27,934 nt of DNA from a virus (lineage: Duplodnaviria > Caudoviricetes), in IMG/VR virus record IMGVR_UViG_3300032320_000131, positions 1 through 27,934 of that record. One strand, written 5' to 3'. Below the pieces are notes generated by a model that was given only the letters and a program-made list of their open reading frames with translations, was not told the origin of the DNA and did no database searches. Below, in pieces: positions 242 through 26,814 of this stretch. A program made the position numbers and the translations under genes. Numbering within the stretch: the stretch's first letter is position 1; each line of letters begins with the position of its first letter.

Positions 242-2200
242 CTAAGCAATTGCGAGGAAGATGAATGTCCCACCATTGGCATTAATAGCCGCAGGCGCGG
301 TGCTGCTAATCTCAAACCCTGCGCTATATGTGTCAACGTAGTCGGTGTTAAAGACATCAGCAGCGGTGCTGTTCAAGAGAAGGTACGGGTCGTTACCAGC
401 CACAATCCCGCGCGCGCTATCCCAGACGTACCAATCACCAGTTGTGTCAGTACGCTTAATCAGGACGAACCTAGCACCACCAGTGAAGCCACAGTCAATA
501 GTCTGCGTTGCGCCCGTGCCTGTGTAACTGCCTACTTTGGAAACACCAGCGCAGGTTGCGAATAGGTAGGCTACATAAGTTTCAGCAGATTGATTTGTAG
601 AGGCGTGTGTTCCTACTGTAAAAACTGAAGATGTTGGATTTGTATCATTCCAGATAGCTGTAGAAGTACTCAAAGCCAAAGTTGTATCCAAACGCATAAA
701 CTTTGTGCCGCCACCCGAACTTACATAAACACTCCAATTTGTGGCTGCATAACTACGGCTTTTAACAATCATCAACTCAGGCGCTGCCGCCAAATTATGC
801 GTCACAGTCCTAGCTACTCCCGTCCCCGTATAGAAAACTTGATCAAAGAAGCCGGGGGCGCGGTCAAACAAATAGTTGATGTATGCGTTGCCGCCAGCGT
901 TTGTGTTGGTTGATGTTGTGCCGACTTTGACGCCATCCATGACATCCCAAGGGTTGGCTTGCAGAGTGGTTGTTCCAGCGGAATTCTCTACGGATGTGGA
1001 TGAGGTCTCTAAGTAGCCCGTACCTGTAAGCCGTGAAACAAATAAATTACCAACTGCTGCACTTCGATACTTAATCAACACAGCATCTGAAACACCTGCG
1101 CCGCCGGTAACCGTGGCGTTTGCACCAGTACCACTTCTTGCAATAGGACTAAACACACTCGTACCACTCGTAGGCACTTTCATCGGGCCGCGACGGATGG
1201 CGATGTACGCAATAGTTGCGCCGTTTAAGTATGCTCCTGCTCTAACCTTAAAACCGACTGATGTTGGATAACATTGTTGACCAGCAAATTCAGCCCCAGA
1301 ATCATTTGCGAATAAAAGTTGTGCATTTGCGCCTGTTGGAGAACCTCGCATGATGTCTGATATAGACCACCCAACACCGGAACTTGTTGTCTTTAATAGC
1401 AACCATTGCGTTTCCCAACCAAGGTTAATTTCTTGGTCTATCGTATTGTTGTGCGTAAACGACCCACACGAAATCACATTGTCATTACCCGTCAGGCCAA
1501 AGCCGCCAGCGTTGTGGGCAAATAGGTAGGCGACGTAGGTTCCGCCATTGGCGTTTACACCAGAGTCTGTCCCTACAGAAAAAACAGTTGATGTTGGGGC
1601 GCTGCTGTTCCAGACAGTTGGAACGGGAGTCCACGCAGAGGCCGCGTCGTTACTGTTAAGAGGGATTGCCGTTAACGCGCCAAGTGAAGTGTGATATGTG
1701 TACCACTGGTCTGAAACGTCAGTGCGTTTTACGACCATGAACCCCGGCACAGAACCAAGATTGTGAGCGATGGTTCTAGCCGAACCGGTACCCGTATACG
1801 TCACCACATCAAAGAACTTGGCCTGCTTGCGGAATGTCCATGAGACGTAGGTAGCGCTGGATGTGTTTACGCGACCACCATCACCTATGGTGAACCCATT
1901 TGACAAAAATGAGGTGACGCTCGCAGTTTGTGCAGCGCTTGGAATAAAAGCGGCACTATCTAAATTGGTGCTTAATTCGTTTCCTTTTGAATCCGGGCCA
2001 AGTCCTCTCGCCGTGTCATTAAGAATATGATTTGTGGCTCCAGACCTGCCTTTAATCCAAACCAACCCACCATTGGTAGACAAATCAATGTTATTCGTGA
2101 TGGTCTGGTTGGCCCCAGTACCCGTATATAGGTAGGTGCTGAAGACCGACTCTATGTAATTTGCTTCGCTTGACACTTGACTTGCACTTGTACTAAACAT
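242..2200 (-). CDS. Tail fibre/virion protein built from ~100-aa beta-rich YTGTG repeats (DUF7483-like), 652 aa
   Basis: Start placed at ATG 2200 (AAGGA RBS; MFSTSASQ). About six repeats; the unit FFDxVxYTGTG..HNL..P..M.VK...WN...PTS.VF.VG...TYVAYLFA occurs twice. Confidence 0.8.
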   Translation of the reverse strand: MFSTSASQVSSEANYIESVFSTYLYTGTGANQTITNNIDLSTNGGLVWIKGRSGATNHILNDTARGLGPDSKGNELSTNLDSAAFIPSAAQTASVTSFLSNGFTIGDGGRVNTSSATYVSWTFRKQAKFFDVVTYTGTGSARTIAHNLGSVPGFMVVKRTDVSDQWYTYHTSLGALTAIPLNSNDAASAWTPVPTVWNSSAPTSTVFSVGTDSGVNANGGTYVAYLFAHNAGGFGLTGNDNVISCGSFTHNNTIDQEINLGWETQWLLLKTTSSGVGWSISDIMRGSPTGANAQLLFANDSGAEFAGQQCYPTSVGFKVRAGAYLNGATIAYIAIRRGPMKVPTSGTSVFSPIARSGTGANATVTGGAGVSDAVLIKYRSAAVGNLFVSRLTGTGYLETSSTSVENSAGTTTLQANPWDVMDGVKVGTTSTNTNAGGNAYINYLFDRAPGFFDQVFYTGTGVARTVTHNLAAAPELMIVKSRSYAATNWSVYVSSGGGTKFMRLDTTLALSTSTAIWNDTNPTSSVFTVGTHASTNQSAETYVAYLFATCAGVSKVGSYTGTGATQTIDCGFTGGARFVLIKRTDTTGDWYVWDSARGIVAGNDPYLLLNSTAADVFNTDYVDTYSAGFEISSTAPAAINANGGTFIFLAIA

Positions 2201-2873
2201 TTTGTGTTCCTTTGCAATTTTCAAAGTGCCAACGCTTTGCAACATTGACAGCAATGACTTTCATACATTGAGGGCATTCAACTTTTGGCTTTGGAATGCC
2301 AAGACGAGATTCACTCATTTTAATTTTGGATGCCTCAGTGTGGCAACGCCCTTTCATTGGACTTGGCCTGCCACGCAATGTATTTGATACTTTCTTTTTT
2401 GTTTCCTCAGAGGGCCTATAGTTTGTCTCTAACCGCGCATTAGCAATATTCTTTCGTCCCCGCTCTGACTTTGGTTTGCGCATCTTTTCTTTTGTTTCTT
2501 CAGATACGACTCGGTTTTTTTGTATGCAAGAAATATAAGCCTTATGTTCATCAGTATGCTTGTATCCCTTAGCGCCATCACCACCGTCTGTCATATTTGT
2601 TAAACATATGCCAAAGTCTCTTATTTCTGATATCAAAAAACACTCTAATTCAATTGCTTGTTCATCAGAAATATTTTCTTCAATTTTTTTAACCACCGGA
2701 CTTAGTCCAGCATAAAGCAATTGACGAATCTTGCTGAGTTTTAAAGACTTCCTATTTTTGTAATATTTTGCTTCTTTCTCATGAAAATAGCAGCGATTGC
2801 CAACGCCCTTGCCAATGTAAAAGGGTTTGTTATTCCTTGGGTCAATCAAAGCATAAACATAAGAATTATTCAT
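2193..2873 (-). CDS. Free-standing GIY-YIG homing endonuclease with NUMOD3-type repeats and C-terminal CxxC motif, 226 aa
   Basis: Start ATG 2873, 1 nt after the upstream TAA. YVYALIDPR..FYIGKG..R, conserved E, LTNMTDGGDG; repeats HTDEHK, SEETKEKM, SEETKKKVS, HTEASKIKMS; ends CPQC..RWHFENCK. AT-rich relative to flanking genes. Confidence 0.9.
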   Translation of the reverse strand: MNNSYVYALIDPRNNKPFYIGKGVGNRCYFHEKEAKYYKNRKSLKLSKIRQLLYAGLSPVVKKIEENISDEQAIELECFLISEIRDFGICLTNMTDGGDGAKGYKHTDEHKAYISCIQKNRVVSEETKEKMRKPKSERGRKNIANARLETNYRPSEETKKKVSNTLRGRPSPMKGRCHTEASKIKMSESRLGIPKPKVECPQCMKVIAVNVAKRWHFENCKGTQNV

Positions 2874-2874
2874 A

Positions 2875-3702
2875 TTACAAATACGATTGACCTGCGTTGG
2901 AACCCCACCAATAGGTGCCGTCAGCCGTGAACACGAACTTGTCACCCTTGCTTGCAGTGCTAGTAATCGTCGGAGCGGTGTTAGCAGGCCACTTAACCGA
3001 TGCCGGCCAAGTCACAGTGCGCGAACCAGTAGCGTCTTGCTTTTGGAACAGCGTGAACGACTTACCAGCAGTGGCAGTGGGGAATGTGTAGGTGCAGTTA
3101 CCAGTCAACGTCAGAATTTGCAGACTGCCGTTGGCAAGATCAATTGTATATGCGGTACTGGTGTTAGCAGTAGCCACTTCTTCTGTATAACCATTGGTAA
3201 ATGTACCAGCCTCAATAGTCTTATTAGTTAGTGTCTGAGTGCCAGTAGTCGTTACGTCACCACTAGCAGATGCCAGCCAAGATAGAGTTCCTGATCCGTT
3301 AGTACCGAGAACTTGACCATTAGTACCATCAGCAGAAGGAAGCGTCCAAGTGACGTTACTAGCAACGGTAGCCGGTGCTTGGAATGCAACCCAGTTTGAC
3401 GAATCGCTATCAGCCAGACGCAAGTCACCCTGACCATTCAGAGTAAGGTTGCCGCTATTGGTTTGAGCGCCAGAGACAGACAGGGTAGAACTCAATACGG
3501 TTGCACCAGAGACGGTTACAGCACCGTTGAAGCTATTGTCTTGGGCCACAGCGCCAGATTGCCAATCCTTGAGATAGGCCATCAGAGTACGGATAGCATC
3601 ATTAATACCGGAAGGAGCGCAGCCTTCTGCAATGTTGATGCTGTTGATGTCTGTATTGCTTCCAGGGGTACTGCTGAATTCTGAAATCTTTACCTTTGGC
3701 AT
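2875..3702 (-). CDS. Tail fibre-like protein, 275 aa
   Basis: N-terminal NIAEGCAPSGINDAIRTLMA anchor-like segment; TLPSADGTNGQVLGTNGSGTLSW and TQTLTNKT fibre motifs; Thr/Gly-rich beta C-terminus. Confidence 0.75.
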   Translation of the reverse strand: MPKVKISEFSSTPGSNTDINSINIAEGCAPSGINDAIRTLMAYLKDWQSGAVAQDNSFNGAVTVSGATVLSSTLSVSGAQTNSGNLTLNGQGDLRLADSDSSNWVAFQAPATVASNVTWTLPSADGTNGQVLGTNGSGTLSWLASASGDVTTTGTQTLTNKTIEAGTFTNGYTEEVATANTSTAYTIDLANGSLQILTLTGNCTYTFPTATAGKSFTLFQKQDATGSRTVTWPASVKWPANTAPTITSTASKGDKFVFTADGTYWWGSNAGQSYL

Positions 3703-23428: not shown

Positions 23429-23454
23429 ATCGGTCTCCTGTTAAAACCAGTTCT

Positions 23455-23483
23455 ATAGTAATACCTGCGTATTTAACAGACAA
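23455..23483 (-). promoter_or_regulatory. Sigma70-like promoter for the late operon
   Basis: TTGTCT (23483-23478)-N17-TACTAT (23460-23455); T-rich upstream sequence; 26 nt before the first late ATG. Confidence 0.6.
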
Positions 23484-23550
23484 TAGAAAACCCTTAAAAA
23501 CAAAACCTAGTATTACCTTCGATTATTAAGTTTAGGTAATATCTCTGTTT

Positions 23551-23735
23551 GGTGGACACACCTAGACCATCCTAGATGTGCCTTCAGAGTAATCTCCGCT
23601 CGGAGCCACCCACCCGTCAGCCTTCTCGTCCTAGTGGTGCTAACTTCGACGCCACTTGCTGTATCTCAGGACTATCCCACAGTTCAGCTTATCCCCTAGC
23701 CCCTACCGTTACCCGACAGGCTAGGCGGTCTGCCC
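23551..23735 (-). ncRNA. Putative ~185-nt structured non-coding RNA of unknown class
   Basis: At least six helices whose G-U pairs work on the minus strand, a candidate pseudoknot GTTAGC/GCTGAC, and no credible ORF. Confidence 0.55.
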
Positions 23736-23737
23736 AA

Positions 23738-23868
23738 AGAAAAACCCCGCTTAGATAGAGGCTCGGCCTTGGCGAGGCAGTCTCCAACACTCCCGTAATA
23801 GTGTCTTTGACCACACAAGCCCCTATCTAAACAGGGTTCTACGGGAATGTCTGACTGCCAGATCAGAC
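23738..23868 (-). ncRNA. C4/CI-like antisense RNA with upstream a1/b1-like target sites
   Basis: 23-bp closing stem (23838-23816 with 23765-23743; 4 G-U) followed by a U-tract. Two inner hairpins carry TACGGGA and GACTGCC, exact complements of upstream TCCCGTA (23846-23840) and GGCAGTC (23859-23853). Confidence 0.75.
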
Positions 23869-23874
23869 GACTAT

Positions 23875-23904
23875 AAGGTAATGCTTATGCTCCATGCGTG
23901 TCAA
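23875..23904 (-). promoter_or_regulatory. Sigma70-like promoter for the non-coding RNA cassette
   Basis: TTGACA (23904-23899)-N18-TACCTT (23880-23875); predicted start falls at the first leader hairpin GTCTGA..TCAGAC. Confidence 0.6.
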
Positions 23905-23920
23905 GTATAAGAAAGTCTGA

Positions 23921-23949
23921 TAGCACACAGCAAAAATTTGTGGGACTAT
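23921..23949 (+). promoter_or_regulatory. Possible promoter for the isolated plus-strand gene
   Basis: TAGCAC-N17-GACTAT with a TGn extension; followed by a leader hairpin and RBS. Confidence 0.35.
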
Positions 23950-23999
23950 GACTCATCGACGCAGCACACGCAGCGTCCTAAACAAGACAGGAGAACGAA

Positions 24000-24179
24000 A
24001 TGCTTCAGACCAATATCCGTAACTTCTACCCGACCCTTGCTGCTGCCGCCAAGGTTGCAGAGGCTAATATGATTTCCGATCCTGACTGGTCTTATGTCTG
24101 CGAATCTTATGACGATGGTGTTACTTGGTCTGTAGCAATTTATGACGAAGACAGCATAAAAGTTGGCTACATCGGCTAA
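24000..24179 (+). CDS. Small acidic hypothetical protein, 59 aa, monocistronic
   Basis: Not in ORF track. CAGGAG RBS; MLQTNIRNFYPTLAAAAKVAEANMISDPDWSYVCESYDDGVTWSVAIYDEDSIKVGYIG; followed by its own terminator. Confidence 0.8.
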   Translation: MLQTNIRNFYPTLAAAAKVAEANMISDPDWSYVCESYDDGVTWSVAIYDEDSIKVGYIG

Positions 24180-24514
24180 TCAACAGGGGCTTCGGCCCCT
24201 TTTTTATTTGCCCTGCGAACATACTCATCCATCTCCGCTTGCAGGATGTCCAGACCAATCTGGATGCCATCTCGGAATTGCTGAGTCGTAATCTCCAGCC
24301 CGTAGTCTGCCGCCACTGGTAGCTGCTTGGGTTGCTTGATCCAGCAGTCAAGAATTGCCTCGCAGATAACGTGCATGGTGCGCTTAGGATGCGTTTTCCG
24401 AGCCATGTAGACCGTCTGTAGGTTCGCCATCAGTTCCTTGCGCCTATGCGCCTCAGAACGCACCCAATACCCCAGACACCCCATACCTTTACGACGCGTA
24501 TCACTCAACACCAC
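24176..24514 (-). CDS. Hypothetical protein; start uncertain, possibly ATG 24430
   Basis: Last ORF of the minus-strand recombination block; AAGGA precedes ATG 24430. Confidence 0.55.
   Translation of the reverse strand: MVLSDTRRKGMGCLGYWVRSEAHRRKELMANLQTVYMARKTHPKRTMHVICEAILDCWIKQPKQLPVAADYGLEITTQQFRDGIQIGLDILQAEMDEYVRRANKKGAEAPVD
24185..24209 (+). terminator. Rho-independent terminator
   Basis: AGGGGC-TTCG-GCCCCT-TTTTTATTT (cUUCGg tetraloop), 5 nt after the stop of the 59-aa gene. Confidence 0.88.
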
Positions 24515-25770: not shown

Positions 25771-25849
25771 AGACAGACTTCACCTGATCCACAAATTCTG
25801 CCACCTTCGGCATTAGCTGCCGATTCTTTCGCTGTACCTCGGTCTCCAT
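25556..25849 (-). CDS. Hypothetical phage protein, 97 aa, overlapping the helicase end and ninB start
   Basis: N-terminal half NRQLMPKVAEFVDQVKSVFGDCKVKYASENG looks like a genuine phage protein; GGGAG RBS upstream. Confidence 0.5.
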   Translation of the reverse strand: METEVQRKNRQLMPKVAEFVDQVKSVFGDCKVKYASENGIERGTKVSSELDGGAETGFLGYESGFDWSAYAADIADRERKAQEPTKPQILGNRTRYK

Positions 25850-26712
25850 CTGTTGTTCTCCCTGTAGAACTGACCATCGGGGTTAAAGAATAGCCCAATG
25901 CGACCTTCCCAGTCTCCGTGACGGTTCTTGTCGCATACCAGTAAGGCATCGACACCATCATCATCTTCGCCGTTCTGGATGCGCTGCTCTTTCTTTTTGT
26001 TGCGCCAGACTGAGAAGCATTGGTCTACCTGATCCGTAATCGAGCCGGAACCTTTGCTGTCGTACTTGCCTGGAACTTGCGATTCATCTGCCAGCTTGCG
26101 ACTGTGGTGAACAATGTGAATATGAATGTTATGGTCTCTGGCGATAGAACACAGTGCATCAATCATCAGCTTCTGACCGTTGTAATCGTCTTCATTGCGA
26201 ACAGTCTTCATGAGGCTGTCCACCACAAAGTGCTGCACACCTTTAACGTCGGCGCAGTATTGAATCACTTTAAGTAGTTCTTTGCTGTCAACGGTTCCCT
26301 GCTGGTCGTATAGCCAAAGTCTGCCAGCCAAAAAGTTGTGGAAGTCCTTGATGAACTTTTCCGTCGGGCCAGCAAAGCCTAGTGCCTGCTTGGTCATGCG
26401 TTTAAGCGTAGCGGCTGGCTTCATCTCGAAGCTAGCAATGCAAACCGTTGCGCCTTGGAACAAGAAGTCCAGCATTACATGAGAAGTCATCATCGACTTG
26501 CCGTGACCATTGATGCCCATCCATAGGCTTACTTCTTGCGGCCGGAACCTGATGTTCTCCTGCGTCTTGGGCCAAGGCAATGTGTGACCAGATACGCTCT
26601 CAGGATTGGCAAACGCATCAATCACAACATCCATGTACTCATCTGCGGATCGGATAGCCAGCGCAGTCCTGGGTGGTTGATAGCCTTCTAGGTCTTTCGG
26701 TGTGATGAGCAT
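25813..26712 (-). CDS. SF4 (DnaB/T7 gp4-like) replicative helicase without primase domain, 299 aa
   Basis: Start ATG 26712 with GGAGGA RBS; Walker A GINGHGKS, SFEM, Walker B FVVDSL, HHSRK, KGSGSI and KNRHG motifs. Confidence 0.9.
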   Translation of the reverse strand: MLITPKDLEGYQPPRTALAIRSADEYMDVVIDAFANPESVSGHTLPWPKTQENIRFRPQEVSLWMGINGHGKSMMTSHVMLDFLFQGATVCIASFEMKPAATLKRMTKQALGFAGPTEKFIKDFHNFLAGRLWLYDQQGTVDSKELLKVIQYCADVKGVQHFVVDSLMKTVRNEDDYNGQKLMIDALCSIARDHNIHIHIVHHSRKLADESQVPGKYDSKGSGSITDQVDQCFSVWRNKKKEQRIQNGEDDDGVDALLVCDKNRHGDWEGRIGLFFNPDGQFYRENNRWRPRYSERIGS

Positions 26713-26739
26713 TGTTCCTCCATGTGAGCCTTCAGTTTG

Positions 26740-26781
26740 CCACAAAAAAATTGTTGACACGGTAACTTTTTTGCGGATGAT
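26740..26781. promoter_or_regulatory. Divergent promoter/operator region
   Basis: TTGACA (26754-26759)-N16-GATGAT on the plus strand, inside an inverted repeat CCACAAAAAA..TTTTTTGCGG between two divergent operons. Confidence 0.55.
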
Positions 26782-26814
26782 ACGGGTTGTGCATCCCGCA
26801 CCCAAGGAGACGAA

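Follow-up and report, generated by a model that had tools for sequence, protein, structure and literature searches.

A pseudoknotted RF02932 element in a tailed phage: comparative fold, links to replication modules and a possible origin function

Introduction

What is the function of the structured, non-coding stretch of about 185 nt that precedes the late genes of a tailed phage? The window (the entire 27.9-kb virus record, 27,934 nt, which may be incomplete) carries this stretch on its minus strand. An initial annotation made from the letters alone had read it as a probably pseudoknotted RNA under an antisense switch, and had named a replication primer or R-loop origin, a put-like antiterminator and a ribozyme as options. 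The question extends beyond this locus, since many environmental phages encode a helicase or a primase but no recognisable origin-binding initiator, and such an element may bear on how replication begins in them.

Origins that combine a promoter, an unwinding element and an R-loop have precedent in passages of PMC4412123: in ColE1 and T4, the transcript hybridises to the template at the unwinding element and then either primes synthesis or exposes the strand for helicase and primase. The structured motifs ARRPOF, GEBRO and PAGEV are located in plasmid replication regions, ARRPOF in one that replicates without a rep gene, according to sections of PMC5737381.

Results

The element belongs to an orphan RNA family

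The sole Rfam match in the window is RF02932, Betaproteobacteria-1 RNA, with 90.6 bits (E 7e-16) against a gathering cut-off of 49.4 bits, and the match spans model positions 1-120 of 120 (Table 1). All three consensus hairpins of the family are paired in the window copy, as judged from the Rfam alignment and from co-variation. The annotated stretch is a real feature, and it adds a member to an orphan family already known rather than founding a new one. The earlier statement that it fits no known RNA family was therefore wrong, and the annotation itself had named a match of this kind as the outcome that would remove the novelty; its description of a pseudoknotted, non-coding minus-strand element stands, and the family itself is uncharacterised. 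Literature searches, with subscription journals mostly outside their reach, returned no paper on the function of the motif. RF02932 reportedly originates from Weinberg et al. 2017 (PMC5737381). The name Betaproteobacteria-1 does not occur in the main text of that paper; the plasmid-borne ARRPOF, GEBRO and PAGEV motifs treated in sections of it gave no Rfam match here, and RF02932 is a separate, phage-borne family. Relative to the Rfam model, what is new from the comparisons below is a conserved 70-nt 3' domain, a co-varying repeat and ties to replication modules.

A first viral sequence pattern was too strict and returned 2 loci only. A pattern from the 3' part of RF02932 yielded 48 viral loci, and 20/20 of those scanned exceeded the cut-off. 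A pattern placed wholly 3' of the Rfam model yielded 100 loci, and the 5' core was present upstream in all 62 distinct rows found by this 3'-domain-only search. The parser located the core in L001-L159 except for three loci, two of which were ended by a contig edge. Clustering gave 66 representatives and, after removal of two false parses, 64 non-redundant relatives. Ten genome records carry RF02932, with mostly betaproteobacterial or Burkholderiales-type titles; a cultured carrier is Acidovorax phage AP1 (OM049504, 11856-11979), where the copy lies immediately 3' of the primase gene, and the other named-record matches were one spring-water phage, a weak match in a Caulobacter phage and one 1.5-Mb Burkholderia replicon. 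Exactly one copy per genome was found in 30/30 carriers; one carrier record shows RF02932 twice, at the terminal repeats of the record.

Table 1. Features of the window and elements of the related loci
Feature	Position or loci	Strand	Basis or remark
DnaB/gp4-type helicase without primase domain	25813..26805	-	PHROG 239 positions 321-605 of 801; Pfam DnaB_C, AAA_25
Probable sigma-70 promoter	23875..23904	-	perfect -35, 18-nt spacer, weak -10; predicted by reading the sequence
5' leader hairpin with 7-mer 'a' (23860-23853)	23851..23866	-	'a' complementary to 'b'
Long attenuator-like hairpin with 7-mer 'b' (23782-23776) and U-tract (23744-23736)	23733..23846	-	C4/CI-like in anatomy only
RF02932 core	23612..23727	-	P1, P2, P3 and three pseudoknots; Rfam match, co-variation
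P1	23725-23719/23701-23695	-	co-variation
P2	23688-23685/23661-23658	-	co-variation
3' domain outside the Rfam model	23555..23611	-	co-variation; 3'-domain-only search recovers loci with the 5' core upstream
P4 with small inner hairpin	23611-23606/23592-23587	-	7-10 compensatory changes at each of three pairs (28 sequences)
Direct repeat unit 1, in P4 loop	23593..23603	-	
Conserved linker in 3' domain	23586-23581	-	
P5	23582-23572/23565-23555	-	co-variation
Direct repeat unit 2	23542..23552	-	just 3' of P5, 51 nt from unit 1
AT-rich tract (68%), candidate unwinding element	23431..23541	.	contains a weak promoter-like site; first late gene's RBS also inside
G-tract element	L184, L187, L188, L191, L194, L201, L208, L218, L222, L225, L229, L235, L238, L239, L241		290-1460 nt after primase stop
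G-tract element, further loci	L254, L255		
Larger non-Rfam elements	L186:2500-2870, L212:2545-2920, L213:2670-3030, L260:1000-1170		other 5' core

Co-variation defines a triple-pseudoknot core

Each helix was scored with its own partner strand and with shuffled partners (5000 shuffles) across the 64 non-redundant relatives, a type of test that kinship inflates. None of the 5000 shuffles was as good for P1, P2, PK2, P3, PK3, P4 or P5, and the third pseudoknot, PK1, was weaker (15/5000). Since PK3 formed part of the parsing rule, its shuffle test is biased; nonetheless, its pair types change on both sides. The short sequences listed in the initial annotation are all present where it placed them, and most of its pairings hold: the P1 hairpin, the pseudoknot GTCCT/AGGAC, P3 (AGTGG/CCACT), the pseudoknot GTTAGC/GCTGAC and the 11-bp stem, which is the P5 hairpin, all co-vary at 0/5000. 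Three of its pairings have to be revised. ACAGC, proposed as an arm of a second pseudoknot, belongs to P2; the GGTGG/CCACC junction closure was rejected, as it does not co-vary (563/5000 shuffles as good) and its 5' side varies while CACC is constant; and CGGAG/CTCTG appears in the single-sequence fold yet clashes with P4. P2, P4, the weaker third pseudoknot and the direct repeat were absent from that annotation. Single-sequence folding was uninformative, the element scoring no better than shuffles (z -1.27). The comparison of relatives shows that a core with three pseudoknots and a 3' domain with two hairpins are conserved in this sequence of about 185 nt.

The last P3 pair (23651.23638) is a conserved C.A/U.G wobble, C.A in 37 and U.G in 28 of 66 sequences; among 48 protein-selected loci, the counts were U.G 31, C.A 16 and U-A 1. 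The interchange of C.A and U.G indicates that the wobble geometry is kept rather than the sequence. As to whether wobble pairs only work on the minus strand, the strand test was mixed (helices longer under the G.U rule in 5/9 regions and under the A.C rule in 4/9); the minus strand itself is supported by gene direction and by the Rfam match. The absence of a reading frame was confirmed in that no minus-strand ORF of at least 50 aa crosses the element, and a 60-aa plus-strand ORF at the element has no PHROG match. The noted contrast in base composition is also real, with 45% AT in the element and 68% AT in the next 111 nt.

The fold was also compared with HDV-like ribozymes, which have the strand order P1-P2-P3-L3-P1'-P4-J4/2-P2' and a catalytic C. 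This assignment was rejected: the helix order differs, U rather than C precedes GAA after P4, and Rfam gives no such match.

A co-varying direct repeat flanks the 3' domain

The family extends about 70 nt further 3' than the Rfam model, through P4, P5 and a direct repeat. In the window, the two 11-nt repeat units are identical at 8/11 positions with three G-to-A differences, and L002 equals the window in both units; the spacing among relatives is mostly 47-64 nt. The units co-vary, with an own-locus score of 7.8 against 5.3 for permuted pairs (0/10000 as good, 63 loci), and 43 protein-selected loci, some on contigs common to the first set, gave 8.2 against 5.3 (0/10000). Parsing succeeded for 83 of 92 non-redundant loci, in which the units show an identity of 0.88-0.98 over five positions and of 0.45 at the next; G in unit 1 opposite A in unit 2 was counted 27 times and the opposite combination 2 times. 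This direction is what G.T wobble with template DNA tolerates and was counted in favor of RNA-template pairing.

A third RNA strand in P4, P5 or the core was rejected as the explanation of the repeat, because no locus-specific complement was found in 5/6 regions of the RNA (same 83 of 92 loci); the sixth region, the inner hairpin, gave a marginal signal (138 and 226 of 5000). With no complement inside the RNA, the evident remaining partner of the repeat would be the opposite DNA strand, or a protein.

Downstream of unit 2, the sequence has the AT-rich stretch expected of an R-loop origin and is a candidate unwinding element: the 60 nt that follow are more AT-rich than their own locus in 56/59 relatives, at a median 95th percentile. 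However, intergenic or promoter DNA could by itself account for both the G-to-A bias and the AT-rich tract. The promoter-like site in the tract scored 8 of 12 in L002 and L020, which are near-identical to the window, and downstream promoter-like sites are weakly enriched overall (14/63 against 7.7 expected). Among 63 relatives, none has a U-tract after P5. Perfect DnaA boxes occur downstream in 3/91 loci against 0.18 expected (L004, L098 and L131, 125-213 nt 3' of the core), a post hoc count in which two loci are similar.

Gene context in the window and its relatives

The minus strand of the window carries the terminase, portal, scaffold, capsid and tail genes between 23428 and 242, and the helicase, NinB and RusA genes occupy 26805-24501. 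The element is located between a terminator (24185-24200), a small divergent ORF and the first late gene, so that it heads a 23-kb late operon, while 2.1 kb and the terminator separate it from the helicase. This helicase has no Toprim domain by Pfam, and no primase or initiator gene was seen elsewhere in the 27.9-kb record, possibly incomplete as it is. A 112-aa ORF 3' of RusA (24176-24514, minus strand) occupies the lambdoid Q position; it has no PHROG, Pfam or atlas match as a Q-like antiterminator. A free-standing GIY-YIG/NUMOD3 homing endonuclease gene (2193-2945, minus strand) lies between tail genes.

Among the 64 relatives, 24 have a primase, helicase or initiator gene within 600 nt of the element, always on the same strand, and 40 have no replication gene within that distance, some flanks being short; in the window, too, none lies right beside the element. 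We used this count rather than the 2.4-kb count (35/64), since SF2 tblastn matches 0.7-1.5 kb downstream in 7 loci are unconfirmed. Terminase lies within 2.4 kb in 5/64 and RusA in 16/64. HNH or endonuclease VII genes adjoin the element in L029, L053, L066, L081, L091 and L098, and may help it to spread between phages.

RF02932 accompanies shortened initiators and primases

The λ O gene contains an internal iteron origin, and λ O-like initiators are represented by PHROG 270 and 9474. With an initiator query built from element-linked proteins, 80 loci with the λ O-like C-terminal domain were gathered, 73 of them with sufficient flank. The element lies upstream of initiators that are short, without the DNA-binding half, in 12/38 loci and upstream of full-length initiators in 0/35; by 70% clusters, the counts are 6/14 and 0/22. 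RF02932 was likewise absent from all 17 full-length-initiator genomes scanned, and internal repeats were present within the full-length initiator gene in 4/4 tested. PHROG 270 was matched in 9/30 carriers, in eight mainly over the C-terminal half. Thus, in a subset of phages the element takes the same early-operon place as λ O and is followed by the same C-terminal protein domain, whereas the N-terminal protein half is absent and an RNA element lies upstream instead. This exclusivity is phylogenetically confounded: the element-bearing short initiators are confined to about two tree groups, and the count does not represent many independent events. There are also counter-cases. In G014, the element lies between scaffold and capsid genes, and the genome encodes a 330-aa HTH_36 initiator-like protein whose gene has a two-copy repeat only; in G001 and G009, small HTH-type matches lie close to the element. 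A whole-genome initiator test based on HTH_36 was discarded as insensitive, as it matched 2/17 positive controls.

Short Toprim primases gave a second link, with the element downstream on the same strand in 40/80 loci and 23 of these 40 copies beginning at most 34 nt past the primase stop codon. Other primase loci carry different elements, namely 16 with a G-tract element and 3 with a third, larger class, with zero overlap with RF02932. The G-tract element is about 250 nt, conserved and structured, ends in a long G-tract, is never found together with RF02932 (absent from the 16 G-tract-type genomes) and has no Rfam match in nine loci scanned; it resembles the R-loop anchors of ColE1 or mitochondria. 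One cluster at 90% primase identity contains both RF02932 and G-tract kinds. The third-class elements and L260 end in the same looped-repeat/downstream-repeat module as RF02932. An Rfam scan of 40 loci without the element in this slot, 3' of the primase (20) or 5' of short initiators (20), returned only tRNA, one int-alpA and one sub-threshold tmRNA. Unrelated structured-looking tracts occupy the slot in L171, L176, L198, L214, L227, L257, L263, L267 and L269.

An attenuator-like leader precedes the window copy

Folding of the 150 nt upstream of the core (z -5.81) gives two hairpins, a small one in the leader and a long one that ends in a U-tract. The promoter-like site further upstream is below the scanner threshold (0 promoters called), and L001, L002, L007 and L013 retain this stretch. 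Pairing between the 7-mers 'a' and 'b' co-varies, with a mean of 7.1 against 5.3 bp (0/10000 permutations, 20 loci). In the P1/P7 C4 and P4 CI antisense RNAs, a 7-mer exposed on a long hairpin is complementary to a site in the 5' leader, and a U-tract follows. The window leader likewise has an exposed 7-mer opposite a leader site and then a U-tract, and would putatively act in trans; unlike C4 and CI it has no Rfam match (the C4 model gave none at E<=1 in the window and none at gathering in 20 loci), and it is found in only half of the relatives, a U-tract lying just upstream of the element in 32/64. The anatomy of the antisense switch in the initial annotation is hence supported by co-variation, while its assignment to the C4 family and its generality are not, given the U-tract count and the 23/40 primase-linked copies that directly follow the primase. 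A literature search on C4/CI and put, with coverage short of most subscription journals, found nothing.

Two lake metatranscriptome assemblies contain contigs that span 23594-23836, with no strand or level and with DNA carry-over possible, which is a weak hint of expression of the element. The same assemblies have nothing over 23872-24500, where both DNA runs have cover, and one of them also covers late genes. The word shares of the RNA runs X17 and X20 were small (0.14, 0.06), and contigs only were used. No contig skips jointly from unit 1 to unit 2 in four runs of thin contig data.

Discussion

An RNA-primed R-loop origin as the leading interpretation

We consider it possible, with a probability of roughly 45%, that the element is an RNA-primed R-loop replication origin, gated in the window phage by the attenuator-like leader. 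Among the options of the initial annotation, the origin or primer gains the most support, antitermination is retained as a rival, and nothing points to catalysis. The repeat geometry, the AT-rich tract, the single copy, the initiators missing their DNA-binding half and the exchange with the G-tract element together make an origin fit better than the rivals. From the sequence comparisons, we infer the following steps. RNA polymerase would transcribe the element from an upstream promoter, with read-through gated by the predicted leader and terminator hairpin in the window phage and transcription from the primase operon in others. From within the P4 loop, unit 1 may then pair with the template strand of unit 2, which borders the AT-rich tract, so that a short R-loop forms. 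After that, trimming or cleavage at the repeat's sharp 3' edge would turn the RNA into a primer for leading-strand synthesis, or else the displaced strand would load the phage helicase, the primase or the shortened initiator's C-terminal loader domain. In this way, the RNA would take over the job of the λ O HTH domain plus iterons.

Compared with ColE1 RNA II and T4 oriF/oriG, as presented in passages of PMC4412123, the element shares a predicted upstream promoter, a putative transcript end at a candidate unwinding element and predicted upstream control through RNA pairing. It differs in that RF02932 is about 185 nt with a triple pseudoknot and a looped repeat as the proposed anchor, its hybrid and priming being putative. 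Against an origin, an 11-bp hybrid is short, and the family lacks the conserved long G-tract of the ColE1 or mitochondrial type of rG anchor, having only three conserved G; it is the alternative element in the slot that a long G-tract marks. More broadly, and with appreciably less confidence, RF02932 may belong to a set of RNA origins that tailed phages exchange for one another; its RNA would replace the DNA-binding half of the initiator, its looped 11-nt guide would invade its own DNA at the matching repeat, and it would be trimmed or self-cut at the repeat edge to prime; the G-tract and larger elements would be other solutions for the same job. If the origin reading is true, an orphan RNA to which the searched literature assigns no function would receive a job, the shortened initiators would be explained, and phages would have a compact RNA-guided origin unlike that of ColE1 or T4.

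Alternative explanations

HK022 put RNA consists of two simple stem-loops, one copy per early operon, one left and one right. A cis-acting RNA of this kind with a different fold, modifying RNA polymerase as an antiterminator for the long early or late operons, is unlikely but deserves serious attention. Like put, the element is a short nascent RNA near the start of a phage operon; it is always in the sense of its operon, often after cro-like or before nin or late genes, and the window copy fits by its place ahead of the late genes. Furthermore, transcription likely continues past the element, as no U-tract lies downstream and promoter-like sites there are infrequent. On the other hand, RF02932 is pseudoknotted, longer and, unlike put, single in each genome (30/30), and antitermination leaves the direct repeat, the link with shortened initiators and primases and the G-tract swap unexplained. 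It is less probable still that the element acts in trans, as an RNA or RNP bound to a protein of the phage or the host, and that its location has no significance, even though Rfam labels the family as sRNA, the neighbours vary and include structural genes and homing endonucleases, the core is compact and conserved, and contigs cover it in two RNA libraries; no terminator sets a 3' end, and action on the element's own DNA is what the AT-rich tract and the co-variation of the repeat downstream suggest.

We give little credence to an origin that folds as single-stranded DNA on the displaced strand, like a primosome-assembly site or single-strand origin. It shares the context evidence of the RNA origin, and the invariant C-GAA-G resembles stable DNA mini-hairpins. 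Moreover, comparative evidence does not separate single-stranded DNA from RNA, a limit of comparative methods set out in a section of PMC5737381. Nevertheless, the three nested short pseudoknots, the many G.U pairs and the interchangeable C.A/U.G wobble suit RNA better, and folded DNA provides no partner for the repeat. Very improbable is a ribozyme with no replication role, cutting or splicing both repeat units at corresponding sites: the complex fold and the strictly kept P3 geometry would suit one, since group I splice sites also show wobble geometry, but the topology maps to no ribozyme compared, Rfam gives no ribozyme match, no guide strand is common to both units, and the thin contigs of the four runs show no skipping between them. 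A translational switch for the next gene has hardly any probability in our estimate. Antisense-gated pseudoknots do control rep translation in IncI plasmids; here, however, the next gene and its distance vary widely, and in the window its RBS lies 100 nt past the element.

Separately from these interpretations, phages near-identical to the window, L007 (2480-2700), L013 and L020, have P1/P2 and leader-hairpin versions that clearly differ from those of the window, between unchanged flanks, which suggests modular exchange of these parts. L007 additionally carries a 13-nt insertion in the P4 loop.
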